Below are positions 9,001 to 15,000 of a stretch of 15,696 nucleotides of DNA, one piece after another. A program made the position numbers. How positions within the stretch are numbered: the stretch's first letter is position 1; each line of letters opens with the position of its first letter. Location of the stretch: IMG/VR virus record IMGVR_UViG_2531839178_000023, one strand, 5' to 3'. Origin of the DNA: a virus (Duplodnaviria; Heunggongvirae; Uroviricota; Caudoviricetes).

Positions 9001-12000
9001 CAAAGCTATTCTGACAACAAATCAGACTTCGCACCCTGCGTCAGTGCATTAATCGCCTTTTGCGCTTGCTGCATGGCTTTCTCAAACGCTGTTGATCCGC
9101 GTGGGGTATTTGCCATTCGGAGCATTGCATTTCTGAATGGTTCGCTCTCATAGGCGCGAGTAAGAAGTCCGTAGCTTACTGCTGCACCAGTTGTCGCCGG
9201 GTTCATTGCCGTCCCATACCCGATAATGAACGGAATGGTTTGCTGACCTGTAGGAGTTGTTACTGCTGCTTTTGCAGCCTGCTGCGTGGATTGCAGGTAA
9301 TTTTTCAATCCTTTCAGATAAGCAGCGTCCTGCCCCTTAAATGTGATGCCAGTCTGGCTTTGCAGGATGTTAAGCTGTCGAAGGAACTGGTCAGGGGATC
9401 CACCTGATTTCTCCATCGCCTTTCCAATGATGCCATTGCGCATTTGCGCCCTGCCAACACGACCAACTGAGTTATACAGTGTCTTAATTTCAGATTTGTT
9501 CTTGCTGAATAGCATGTTATTGACAACTTCCGGCGTCAGATCGCCTTTCATGAGAACATTCTTCAGCCTGGTATTCTTGAGTTTCGCCGCTTCGTCAGCG
9601 TAGACGGCATTGGCCTGCTGATATTTACGGAGAGTATCGTTGCCAAGATTCTGACCAATGGCACCATTGATATCGTCGGTCATCGCCTTGTAAACGCGAT
9701 GAATGGCGGCATCGGAACGGTTTGGTAACACTGGTCGCTCACCCTTCACGTCCATTCTGAACTGGCTGCGCAGATCGCTTAATTGCTTCAAGTCCAGATT
9801 TACCGGACCATCAGGACCAGCATTGCGAACAAGCTCATCACGATAGGACTGAAGTTTTGAAATAGTCTCGTTATCAGCAACCTTACCAAGCTTCTGCAGG
9901 TTAGATATTTCTGTATCAATCTGCTGAATTGCTCGCGCAGGCTGAATGTTTACTCCAGCCATAGCATTCTGAACCTGTGAAGTGGTCAACAAAAACTGGC
10001 CACCGAGTTAGAGTTTTTCCAGTATCGATTTTCCGATTCGTTTGGGGGTAACCCACCGTTATATTCGTGCGGTCTTAGTGCGCTGTAATATCCAACGATA
10101 TAGTCCGTTATGGCGTGAGCTGCCTCGCTGAAGCTTACGTAACCCACCACCGGCATCCATTCGTTCTTCAGACTCCTGAAGAAGCGTTCCATTGGGCTGT
10201 TATCCCAGCAGTTTCCGCGCCGGCTCATACTCTGTCTGATCTGGTATCGCCACAATAACTGCCGGAACTGCCTGCTCGTATAATGACTGCCCTGATCGCT
10301 GTGGAACATCACCCCGCCGGGCTTACCACGGGTTTCCCATGCCATTTCCAGCGCTTTCATGGTGAGCCTGCTGTCCGGCGAGAACGACATGGCCCAGCCC
10401 ACTGGTTTTCTTGCGAACAGGTCGAGAACAACGGCGAGGTACGCCCAGCGCTTACCCGTCCAGATATAGGTCACATCACCGCACCACACCTGATTTGGCT
10501 CGGTCACGGCGAACTGCCTTTCAAGGTAGTTAGGGATAGCAACATGTTCATGACCACCACGTTTATACCGGTGAGTCGGCTGCTGACAACTGACCAGCCC
10601 CAGCTCTTTCATGAGCCTGCCAGCAAGCCAGCGTCCCATCTGGTAGCCTCTCCGGGTTGCCATTGTGGCGATGCTTCTTGCTCCGGCCGAACCATGGCTG
10701 ATGCCATGTAGCTCAAGTACCTGACTGCGTAATACAGCCCGTCTGCCGTCTGGTTTTTCAGGACGGTTTTTCCAGTATCTGTAGCTGCTGCGATGAACCC
10801 CGAACACTTGGCAGAGTGTGACCACAGGATAATGCGCTCTGAGTTTCCCGATTATCGAGAACTGTTCAGGGAGTCTGACATCAAGAGCGCGGTTGTAGAT
10901 TCAATTGGTCAACGCAACAGTTATGTGAAAACATGGGGTCGCGGAGGTTTTTTGAATGAGACGAACATTTACAGCAGAGGAAAAAGCCTCTGTTTTTGAA
11001 CTATGGAAGAACGGAACAGGCTTCAGTGAAATAGCGAATATCCTGGGTTCAAAACCCGGAACGATCTTCACTATGTTAAGGGATACTGGCGGCATAAAAC
11101 CCCATGAGCGTAAGCGGGCTGTAGCTCACCTGACACTGTCTGAGCGCGAGGAGATACGAGCTGGTTTGTCAGCCAAAATGAGCATTCGTGCGATAGCTAC
11201 TGCGCTGAATCGCAGTCCTTCGACGATCTCACGTGAAGTTCAGCGTAATCGGGGCAGACGCTATTACAAAGCTGTTGATGCTAATAACCGAGCCAACAGA
11301 ATGGCGAAAAGGCCGAAACCGTGCTTACTGGATCAAAATTTACCATTGCGAAAGCTTGTTCTGGAAAAGCTGGAGATGAAATGGTCTCCAGAGCAAATAT
11401 CAGGATGGTTAAGGCGAACAAAACCACGTCAAAAAACGCTGCGAATATCACCTGAGACAATTTATAAAACGCTGTACTTTCGTAGCCGTGAAGCGCTACA
11501 CCACCTGAATATACAGCATCTGCGACGGTCGCATAGCCTTCGCCATGGCAGGCGTCATACCCGCAAAGGCGAAAGAGGTACGATTAACATAGTGAACGGA
11601 ACACCAATTCACGAACGTTCCCGAAATATCGATAACAGACGCTCTCTGGGGCATTGGGAGGGCGATTTAGTCTCAGGTACAAAAAACTCTCATATAGCCA
11701 CACTTGTAGACCGAAAATCACGTTATACGATCATCCTTAGACTCAGGGGCAAAGATTCTGTCTCAGTAAATCAGGCTCTTACCGACAAATTCCTGAGTTT
11801 ACCGTCAGAACTCAGAAAATCACTGACATGGGACAGAGGAATGGAACTGGCCAGACATCTAGAATTTACTGTCAGCACCGGCGTTAAAGTTTACTTCTGC
11901 GATCCTCAGAGTCCTTGGCAGCGGGGAACAAATGAGAACACAAATGGGCTAATTCGGCAGTACTTTCCTAAAAAGACATGTCTTGCCCAATATACTCAAC

Positions 12001-15000
12001 ATGAACTAGATCTGGTTGCTGCTCAGCTAAACAACAGACCGAGAAAGACACTGAAGTTCAAAACACCGAAAGAGATAATTGAAAGGGGTGTTGCATTGAC
12101 AGATTGAATCTACAGTTGCTTTTTTTAATATATCTCGCTCAAGGCGAGCTTCATTTAACGCCTTACGCAGTTGCAGAATTTCAGATTCCAGTTCAGCCAC
12201 CGTGCGGGAACCAGGAGTACCGAGTCCTTTTCTGGCGGCGGTAACCCATTGTCCTAAAGTGCCTTCAGGAAGGGATAATCGGGAAGCGCCTTCACTGATC
12301 GAAAGTTGATTTTCAAGAACCGTTCTGACAGCTTCGGCTTTGAACTCTTTAGAGTAACGTTGGGTTTTTCTGCTCATTATTAGCTCCTTCTGATGCCATT
12401 CTATTTCAGGAAGGAGTGTCCGTTAAACTCAGGCTACCTCAAATTAATGGCTGGCAACGAGGAGGCGCAGGCTAAATGCGTTCAGGTAATGAACATAAGA
12501 GTTAACGAACTAAAACAGGCGGCATAAATGGCAAGCAGAGGCGTAAATAAGGTGATTATCCTTGGTCGGGTAGGACAAGACCCGGAAGTTCGATACTCAC
12601 CATCAGGAACAGCGTTCGCTAACCTGACAATAGCCACGTCAGAACAATGGCGAGATAAAAATACTGGCGAGCAAAAGGAATTGACTGAATGGCATCGTGT
12701 TGCTGTATCCGGGAAACTGGCTGAGGTCGTGGGGCAGTATGTAAAAAAAGGTGATCAGATTTATTTCGAGGGAATGCTGAGAACCAGAAAGTGGAAAGAC
12801 CAGTCAGGGCAAGACCGTTACACAACCGAGGTTCATGTCGGAATTAATGGCGTGATGCAAATGCTTGGCGGCATTGGCGACAGCAAACAACAAGCAGCCA
12901 GCAGGCAATCACAGAAGCCACAGCAGCAATCATCACCAGCACAACACAACGAACCTCCGATGGATTTTGACGACGATATACCCTTTGCACCAGTAACTCT
13001 CCCCTTCCCTCGTCACGCTATTCACGCAATTTAATCAGGAGAAAATCATGCCAGCGCCTCAGTATGGTGCGGATGACCCGCGCCGCTGTTCCGGCAATTC
13101 CGTATTGGAGGTGCTGGATAAATTCAGAAAAAACTACGACCGGATAATGTCGCTACCGCAGGAAACGAAAGAGGAAAAGGAATTTCGCCATTGCATATGG
13201 CTTGCAGAGAAAGAAGAACACGAGCGAATTTACCAGACATCAATCCGACCATTCCGCAAAGCCACATATACCCACTTCCCTGAAATTGACCCGCGCCTGC
13301 GTAATTACCGCTCACGCTATGGCGCTATCAGTAATGACTGAGGAATTAACCATGAGAGGACTTGCATACAATCCCGGCATTCTTCCGGCAGAAATGATTA
13401 TTCGCCAACGCGTAAAGCCAATGCCATCGAGAGAGGAATTGCTTAAGAGAAATTCTTTTCCATCAGTGAATCAAAACAAATATCTGAATGCGATGTGGCG
13501 GAGTGGGAAAAAATGAAACAAATGTCACTAATTGAGATGGATGGTTTTCTGAAAGGTAATAGATTTGCCCCTATATTTCCAGACATCTGTTATCACTTAA
13601 CCCATTACAAGCCCGCTGCCACAGATATTCCCGTGGCGAGCGATAACCCAGCGCACTATGCGGATGCCATTCGTTATAATGCTCGAACGCCTCTGCAAGG
13701 TTCTTTGCTGCCGTTAACCCGTCTGGTTTGGGCATGATACTGATGTAGTCACGCTTTATCGTTTTCACGAAGCTCTCTGCTATTCCGTTACTCTCCGGAC
13801 TCCGCACCGCCGTGTTCTTCGGTTCAAGTCCCAACATCCGGGCGAACTGGCGTGTTTCATTAGCCCGGTAGCATGAACCATTATCCGTCAGCCACTCCAC
13901 TGGAGACGACGGAAGATCGTTGCCGAAGCGGCGTTCCACCGCTCCCAGCATGACGTCCTGTACTGTTTCACTGTTGAAGCCGCCGGTAGTCACCGCCCAG
14001 TGCAGTGCCTCACGATCACAGCAGTCCAGCGCGAACGTGACACGCAGTCTCTCTCCGTTATCACAGCAGAACTCGAACCCGTCAGAGCACCATCGCTGAT
14101 TGCTTTCTTTCACGGCCACTCTGCCTGTATGTGCCCGTTTCGATGGCGGTACAGCAGGTTTTCGCTCAAGCAACAGCGCATTCTGGCGCATGATCCGGTA
14201 AACACGTTTGGCATTGATCGCAGGCATACCATCAAGTTCTGCCTGTCTGCGAAGCAGCGCCCATACCCGACGATAACCATACGTGGGCAGCTCTCCGATA
14301 ACATGGTGTATACGGAGAAGCACATCCGTATCATCAGTGTGACGACTGCGGCGGCCATCCATCCAGTCATCGGTTCGTCTGAGAATGACGTGCAACTGCG
14401 CACGCGACACCCGGAGACAACGGCTGACTAAGCTTACTCCCCATCCCCGGGCAATAAGGGCGCGTGCGCTATCCACTTTTTTGCCCGTCCATATTCAACG
14501 GCTTCTTTGAGGAGTTCATTTTCCATCGTTTTCTTGCCGAGCAGGCGCTGGAGTTCTTTAATCTGCTTCATGGCGGCAGCAAGTTCAGAGGCAGGAACAA
14601 CCTGTTCTCCGGCGGCCACAGCAGTAAGACTTCCTTCCTGGTATTGCTTACGCCAGAGAAATAACTGGCTGGCTGCTACACCATGTTGCCGGGCAACGAG
14701 GGAGACCGTCATCCCCGGTTCAAAGCTCTGCTGAACAATTGCGATCTTTTCCTGTGTGGTACGCCGTCTGCGTTTCTCCGGCCCTAAGACATCAATCATC
14801 TGTACTCCAATGACTAGTCTAAAAACTAGTATTAAGACTATCACTTATTTAAGTGATACTGGTTGTCTGGAGATTCAGGGGGCCAGTCTAGGTAAATGCA
14901 TCCCCCGAGATTTAAAGGTTAACGAAACAAACGCTGAATATCTGGTGCGTAAATTTGCTGAAGCGGAGGCCAAGTGCGCGGAGCTGGCAGCGGAGAATGC

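Follow-up and report, generated by a model that had tools for sequence, protein, structure and literature searches.

When two copies of IS30 lie in direct orientation, site-specific dimerisation destroys the DNA between them, one of the copies is then lost, and a single IS30 is left (PMC9333248). IS30 is also encountered inside other insertion sequences (ISs); an IS911 interrupted by IS30—written IS911::IS30 below—has been reported beside the gtrIC cluster of Shigella flexneri (PMC4924310). Here we describe a stretch of tailed-phage DNA of 15,696 nucleotides (nt), 'the window' from here on (IMG/VR virus record IMGVR_UViG_2531839178_000023), in which a complete IS30 bridges parts of two different elements of the IS3 family, IS911 and IS600. 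The junction appears to mark a large internal deletion in a P22/Sf6-like prophage, which joined the tailspike/ejection end to the erf-ssb-abc2 early-left end; this is supported by comparison with relatives. The deletion probably arose, we think, when two IS30s in direct repeat, the one inside IS911 and the other inside IS600, exchanged with each other.

The IS-derived DNA, as read from the open reading frame (ORF) list and the sequence, occupies 2464 bp (9978–12441). A phage gene that runs leftward, with its end at 9006, lies on one side of it, and ssb, which starts at 12528, on the other. It is a three-part chimera: 916 bp from the orfB side of IS911, a complete IS30, and 327 bp from the orfA side of IS600 (Table 1). 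The parts are collinear, and both IS3-family arms share one orientation. A complete IS911 comprises two inverted repeats, orfA, an A6G frameshift site and orfB within 1250 bp, and generates a 3-bp target duplication. Only the 916 bp on the right inverted repeat (IRR) side are found here; orfA, the slippery site and the left inverted repeat (IRL) are absent, and the arm is a fragment, not a transposition-competent member. The IS600 arm is likewise incomplete, lacking orfB and IRR. With one end each and no OrfAB, neither half is mobile.

The initial annotation had taken this block for one IS600-like element whose own adjacent deletion cost it the target duplication, and into which IS30 later inserted. 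That the outer ends carry no direct repeat fits such an origin, as does the overall length, which is about that of one IS3-family element plus IS30. The arms tell a different story. In local blastn alignments to curated references, the left arm is 99.56% identical over its 916 bp to the IS911 annotated in phage Sf6 (and 99.4–99.5% identical to Escherichia coli IS911::IS30), whereas the right arm, the only part that is IS600, is 99.69% identical to positions 938–1264 of the full 1264-bp RefSeq-annotated element. Searched alone, the 327-bp right arm is 99.7% identical to IS600 in more than 3000 E. coli records; it gives no local blastn match to IS911, and the reference copies of IS911 and IS600 do not align to each other by blastn whatsoever. 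rve domains are found in a 279-amino acid (aa) ORF of the IS911 part, and an HTH_Tnp_1 domain in the IS600 part. Each arm thus exceeds 99.5% identity to a reference of its own, the references have no detectable nucleotide similarity, and the change from one to the other coincides with the end of IS30. Nor could one transposase have paired the IRR of IS911 with the IRL of IS600. The arm identities and the position of the switch refute a single element and its own adjacent deletion, an origin to which we attach practically no probability.

How closely the switch coincides with IS30 can be seen on its right side. The first bases of the window beyond IS30 are GTTGCTTTTTTTAATATATCTCGC, a perfect match to IS600, whereas genuine E. 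coli IS911::IS30 reads GTAGCCTTTTTAATATTTCATTC, and the switch must therefore fall within 2 bp of the IS30 end. That IS30 merely landed in a host IS afterwards, as first proposed, is not supported; IS30 is itself the site of the rearrangement, and the IS3-family element is not. Homeologous recombination between IS911 and IS600 beside IS30 was also considered, prompted by BLAST matches that ran 17–21 bp past IS30, and was ruled out: the window departs from IS911 from the third base after IS30, and this, together with the want of any blastn alignment between the two elements, excludes a cross-over of that kind.

The outer limits of the block can be defined exactly. The initial annotation placed it at 9970–12441, with the left end to be fixed somewhere in 9970–9978. 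The right end stands; the sequence there reads ...GGCTACCTCA, and homology to erf begins with the very next base. The left end is settled at 9978, where the IS911 terminus TGAAGTGG starts, by an alignment of four IS911 ends (that of the window and three others) in different contexts. Some E. coli matches began at 9972, and an IS911 extending left over 9972–9977 was rejected, since AACCTG is a chance likeness that occurs in one flank only. At the termini so defined, the left flank (...AACCTG) and the right flank (AATTAATGG...) have no 3–4 bp direct repeat, as was reported at the outset; the duplication is lacking because the two ends belong to different elements from separate insertions. Both joints set an exact IS terminus against uninterrupted phage sequence, and are bona fide insertions.

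Duplications had also been described for the other ISs of the window. Those of IS630 (TA on both sides) and IS2 (GGTAA on both sides) are confirmed, while that of IS30—GT, at 10892–10893 and 12115–12116—is not, its two flanks coming from different elements. Uninterrupted, the target reads ...GCGCGGT/AGCCTTTTTT in IS911 and ...ACGCTGT/TGCTTTTTTT in IS600 (slashes mark the IS30 joint). Judged by their sequences the two sites are homologous, each lying a few bases from the frameshift A-run and sharing the core GC-n-GT-n-GC. The left GT would accordingly be that of IS911 and the right that of IS600, rather than the footprint of one insertion, and the pair resembles a duplication because IS30 uses the homologous dinucleotide in both host elements. 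The IS30 itself looks intact. It has the length (1221 bp), the 26-bp terminal inverted repeats (88% match, found independently by an inverted-repeat search) and the transposase (~383 aa) of that element, and differs from E. coli IS30 copies by 2–3 mismatches. Its right end lies next to the OrfA/OrfB slippery site, as had been noted, although by our measure 5 nt rather than 6 nt from the T7 run at 12120–12126 (the A7G site on the other strand).

The phage DNA on the two sides comes from distant parts of one genetic map. On the left, what was initially read as a 5'-truncated ejection-protein gene is just that: 972 of 1998 bp of a gp16-like gene are kept, 92.5% identical to Sf6 gene 13 up to the last base before IS911. 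On the right, the orphan 3' tail said to end at the start of ssb was identified by search as the last 86 bp of erf, and the flank as a whole (erf tail, then ssb, abc2 and a DUF2737 gene) is 97.6% identical to phage HK75. Ten other genomes with an identical SSB have a full 235-aa erf before ssb. On the Sf6 map the break points fall at nt 12583, in gene 13, and in the last 86 bp of erf, and the interval missing from the window is 21997–39043 plus 1–12582, or ~29.6 kb. Part of this is the IS911 present in Sf6, and the phage DNA proper comes to ~28.4 kb. The losses include most of erf, kil, cIII, N, the repressor region, replication, nin, Q and lysis on the one hand, and terminase, portal, scaffold, coat, head completion and the other two ejection genes on the other; the early claim that the phage core (head, lysis, replication, immunity) had been removed is thereby borne out. 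An IS-bridged deletion has three marks, and the block shows all of them: new joints that fall precisely at IS ends, the want of a matching duplication, and the loss of DNA that intact relatives have.

The IS911 of Sf6 lies in ninG (Sf6 32876–34124), in the orientation opposite to that of the fragment in the window. Its orientation means that it was not the source of the window junction; it shows that IS911 readily enters this type of phage.

Pattern and BLAST searches for the two outer junctions covered 5426 E. coli genomes, a species-representative genome collection and viral contigs, though no complete Shigella genomes, and neither junction was found; a pre-deletion junction of erf with IS600, its sequence guessed, had no match in the species-representative genomes. 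The joint of gp16 with IS911, at the same position in gp16, ends short-read contigs from at least four other sequencing runs, and this outer junction is therefore common to the lineage. When the region 9500–13000 was compared by megablast with the 5426 E. coli genomes, all of them complete, the best matches spanned only 9977–12134 and were annotated as IS911 plus IS30; the chimera of IS911, IS30 and IS600 was absent from these genomes, the best coverage being 62% against the 70% expected of it.

The sequence of events that we favor would have begun with an Sf6-like prophage at argW that received IS911 in its gp16-like gene and IS600 in erf, independently and in the same orientation. Each of these elements would have carried, or gained, an IS30 at the preferred GT near the frameshift A-run, antisense to orfAB. 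The two IS30s would then have constituted 1.2-kb direct repeats ~30 kb apart, and exchange between them—by RecA-type homologous recombination, or by IS30 site-specific dimerisation followed by loss of one copy—would have excised the interval, so that one IS30 was left between the outer halves of the two host elements. Swept away with the interval would be the orfA half of IS911, the 5' part of the ejection gene, the other virion genes, lysis, Q/nin, replication and immunity, those PL genes that precede erf on the promoter-proximal (immunity) side, the greater part of erf itself, and the orfB half of IS600. Collinear halves in one orientation around a single IS30 are what a deletion between direct IS30 repeats is expected to leave.

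Both of the likely parents are common in E. coli. Chromosomes and plasmids of this species yield IS911::IS30, with the same junction and orientation as here, among their top matches. For the other parent a synthetic IS600::IS30 query was assembled, in which IS30 keeps its orientation, occupies the homologous GT and is flanked by a GT duplication; it matches 156 E. coli genomes at ≥80% coverage, and among the matches listed it is found at full length and 99.9% identity, mostly in one piece, in a porin pseudogene by hchA. In both parents IS30 occupies the homologous GT beside the frameshift site in the same orientation. The IS30–IS600 junction is marked, too, by a 116-aa ORF in which IS600 OrfA reads into the IS30 end. 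This exact protein is listed in 4862 blocks of a public collection, and its ORF is met with in three contexts or more, namely at the porin locus, at a second prophage locus and near cobU. In the IS911::IS30 of E. coli CH4797, the slippery site has five A's (TTAAAAAGG), compared with six in the uninterrupted IS911 of Sf6, a one-base loss in an element that was already disabled.

Two nested copies are not strictly necessary, and the main rival to exchange between them dispenses with one. In a one-step transpositional deletion, a single nested IS30 (in IS911::IS30, for example) would form a junction of abutted inverted repeats, or dimer, that attacks the preferred site of an intact IS600 in erf on the same molecule. 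The product predicted is identical to the window; intramolecular deletions by IS30 do start at the edge of an inverted repeat and end in hot-spot sequences (PMC9333248); and the IS600 site is demonstrably used by IS30 elsewhere. Such an event calls, however, for an unstable IS30 dimer at the donor and an attack on one particular site 30 kb off, and single IS30 copies inserted into chromosomal hot spots reportedly stay stable and undergo no rearrangements (PMC9333248). The abundance of both nested parents in nature makes two direct IS30 repeats a ready substrate, instead. It is on these grounds, the abundance of the parents and the reported stability of single hot-spot copies, that we prefer exchange, and consider the one-step route unlikely although well worth keeping in mind.

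Several points count against exchange between two nested copies. Its pre-deletion state, gp16::IS911::IS30 together with erf::IS600::IS30, was not found in E. coli complete genomes, species-representative genomes or viral contigs. The sequence differences of the IS30 reveal no cross-over: a mosaic of two IS30 alleles was sought as proof of homologous recombination, and proved uninformative, there being three variant positions, of which two are private to the window. Homologous recombination, dimerisation with resolution, and one-step transpositional deletion would all yield like products, and cannot be separated by the product sequence. Finally, the block is spanned only by a draft assembly from 2012: look-ups of proteins specific to the lineage returned just this draft and short-read contigs that break at IS ends, some of them at IS2.

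That last circumstance gives some substance to an assembly artefact, in which two IS30 copies, one in IS911 and one in IS600, were collapsed and the two ends of the prophage falsely joined, so as to hide an interval that is intact or differently arranged. The sole spanning contig is the draft one, every short-read contig of the lineage stops at an IS end, and IS30, IS911 and IS600 are all multicopy repeats. This contig, however, which is 220 kb long, crosses three other IS copies cleanly, with proper duplications, and in it both halves of the prophage lie where they should, with argW and dsdX as the host flanks. Decay is heavy in the rest of the prophage, too—IS630 in gtrB, a broken gtr gene, IS2, and a fusion of Ea22 to dsdX—as befits a dead remnant. 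We therefore think an artefact quite improbable.

The window is 100% identical to that contig, AKNA01000064.1 of NCBI assembly GCA_000268145.1. To the left of the chimera the contig has, in order, mlaA, yfdC, argW, int, gtrA, gtrB::IS630, a broken type-specific gtr gene, an acyltransferase gene, the tailspike gene and the truncated gp16-like gene; to its right come the erf tail, ssb, abc2, DUF2737, IS2, two Ea22-like genes, a dsdX fragment, dsdA and emrY. With argW and yfdC on the left, and dsdX, dsdA and emrY on the right, both halves belong to one prophage locus. This bears on a further alternative, namely that IS30–IS30 exchange took place between different replicons or prophages, and that the late and early halves were never one prophage. 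The left half is indeed closest to Sf6-type podoviruses (92–94%), and the right half to lambdoid phages of the HK75/mEpX2 type (96–98%). Yet a single P22-like genome is normally mosaic in this way, the run erf-ssb-abc2-DUF2737-Ea22 is ordered and oriented in Sf6, too, as it is here with respect to int and tailspike, and the right half adjoins dsdX, the host side expected of an argW prophage. A dual origin seems improbable to us.

Table 1. Position and character of the features discussed (window coordinates)
Feature	Position	Strand	Remarks
IS911, right part	9978–10893	-	IRR terminus and most of orfB; 916 of 1250 bp; ends at GT beside IS30
IS30, complete, 1221 bp	10894–12114	+	26-nt inverted repeats; intact 383-aa transposase ORF 10956–12107
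IS600, left part	12115–12441	-	IRL terminus, orfA, A7G slippery run; 327 of 1264 bp
116-aa ORF, IS600 OrfA reading into IS30 end	12027–12377	-	Marks IS30–IS600 junction
gp16-like DNA-transfer (ejection) gene, 3' 972 bp	9006–9977	-	5' 1026 bp missing; Pfam Phage_P22_gp16
erf (Erf/Rad52-like single-stranded DNA-annealing gene), last 86 bp	12442–12527	+	Ends at ssb start; aligns to end of HK75 erf
ssb	12528–13034	+	Surviving early-left gene; HK75 annotation under match
abc2, anti-RecBCD	13048–13341	+	Pfam Anti-RecBCD_p2, E = 2.8e-61; HK75 annotation
Integrase gene, intact	1–1158	+	Pfam integrase domains; argW immediately left in source contig
Tailspike gene, intact, 673 aa	6820–8841	-	Pfam Head_binding (P22-type); 5' part matches Sf6 and related podoviruses
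gtrB, split	1654–3743		Interrupted by IS630-like element
IS630-like element, 1167 bp	1834–3000		TA at 1832–1833 and 3001–3002
Type-specific glucosyltransferase gene	3740–5355		DUF6056 / GT_STM0557_N; broken near 4228–4237 into two ORFs
Acyltransferase ORF, 357 aa	5449–6522		Intact in window
IS2, full length, 1331 bp	13560–14890		GGTAA duplication
Last Ea22-like ORF	15352–15696 and next ~100 bp of contig		Enters dsdX-derived DNA from ~15649–15654

The rest of the window fits an Sf6/P22-like (Lederbergvirus-type) prophage at argW, whose gene order it retains. Just left of position 1, upstream of int and by yfdC and mlaA, the contig has a complete argW-type tRNA-Arg, and its place beside int shows the remnant to be at the prophage site of argW; the window itself gave no match in scans for tRNAs and Rfam families. 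The cryptic prophage KpLE1 (CPS-53) of E. coli K-12 is integrated at argW also, and the present remnant likewise lies beside this gene. In Sf6, attP is situated between int and xis, which puts int and the O-antigen genes at one end of the prophage. The tailspike gene is the late-gene neighbor that survived the deletion.

Other damage has accumulated around the junction. An IS630-like element splits gtrB. Related strains have this gene intact, at 306 aa, in their short-read contigs, which makes the insertion younger than the joint of gp16 with IS911. The type-specific glucosyltransferase gene, in two pieces in the window, is intact in related strains, too, at 546 aa. The acyltransferase ORF presents the reverse picture: intact in the window, it is split in two short-read contigs of related strains. 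IS2 has the DUF2737 gene on one side and the Ea22-like genes on the other; at its left terminus it has TAGATTTG, where TGGATTTG would be expected. The last of the Ea22-like ORFs runs into dsdX-derived DNA. This fusion is a second deletion, with no IS at its joint, to which xis, attR, dsdC, the 5' part of dsdX and the remainder of the early-left region were lost. Short-read contigs from four other runs contain this fusion ORF, too. The history we infer is that of a prophage locked in place; besides int and a gtr cluster in decay, it keeps intact ORFs for the acyltransferase and the tailspike.

The chimera has at least one precedent. Near cobU in E. coli, part of IS600 orfA is followed by IS30 and then by the inward-facing orfA part of a third IS3-family element, with the junction ctaca/GCGGCTTTTTTTAATAT. 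IS30 is again 5 nt from the T7/A7 run, but its orientation relative to orfA is the opposite one. The fragment of the third element found there matches 1258 E. coli genomes at ≥80% coverage, a figure that pertains to the fragment and not to the chimera. IS30 has therefore been seen 5 nt from the A-run in three elements—IS911, IS600, and the one near cobU—and this repeated use of the window, together with the cobU case, implies that IS30-bridged chimeras recur. Tentatively, and with some doubt, one might go further: the programmed –1 frameshift window of several otherwise unrelated IS3-family elements may be a conserved hot spot specific to IS30, where nested copies silence the host IS and act as portable 1.2-kb homology, fusing elements and deleting what lies between. 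Symmetry around the GT scores 6 of 12 in IS911 and 7 of 12 in IS600; scores of 7 or more occur at ~1% of positions, and these counts are suggestive only.

What is one to make of this locus? As an event, it is an ordinary kind of prophage decay in the IS-rich genomes of Escherichia and Shigella, of low novelty, and it records how a serotype-converting prophage of the Sf6 kind was disabled. Its interest lies in the correction, and in the caution that goes with it. An apparent nested IS of the right length, adorned with a tidy 2-bp repeat, turns out to be a recombination scar between different elements, and counts of IS copies, target duplications or IS-in-IS insertions that are based on annotation would misread such a block. 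Mildly new is that IS30 has used the frameshift window of three IS3-family elements, with chimeras as the outcome; this offers a small lead on how IS30 chooses its targets. Were the hot-spot reading true, chimeras of the type described here would form a recurrent, uncatalogued class of scar in E. coli and Shigella, one that annotation pipelines misread as a single nested IS, or as unrelated pseudogenes.

Compared with its closest known counterparts, the locus departs from each in a simple way. With IS911::IS30 of E. coli and Shigella it shares the left 916 bp, the IS30, the orientation, and the left junction (...GCGCGGT/TGTAGATTC), but it lacks the orfA side of IS911 and is IS600 from the third base beyond IS30. 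With IS600::IS30 of E. coli it shares the right 327 bp, the IS30, the orientation, and the right junction (...GAATCTACA/GTTGCTTTTTTT), but it lacks the orfB side of IS600 and has IS911 orfB in its place. Phage Sf6, a Lederbergvirus, has the same order of genes on either side—int, O-antigen modification genes, tailspike and gp16 on one, and erf, ssb, abc2, DUF2737 and Ea22 on the other. The window differs from it in being without the ~29.6 kb of map already described, and in having a gtrABC cluster and an acyltransferase gene where Sf6 has the single gene oac. In the manner of deletions by exchange between directly repeated ISs, finally, one IS remains, accompanied by the outer flank of each parent, with no matching duplication and with joints at exact termini. 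The difference is that here the IS30 copies appear to have been nested in two IS3-family elements, so that the scar mimics a single nested IS, instead.

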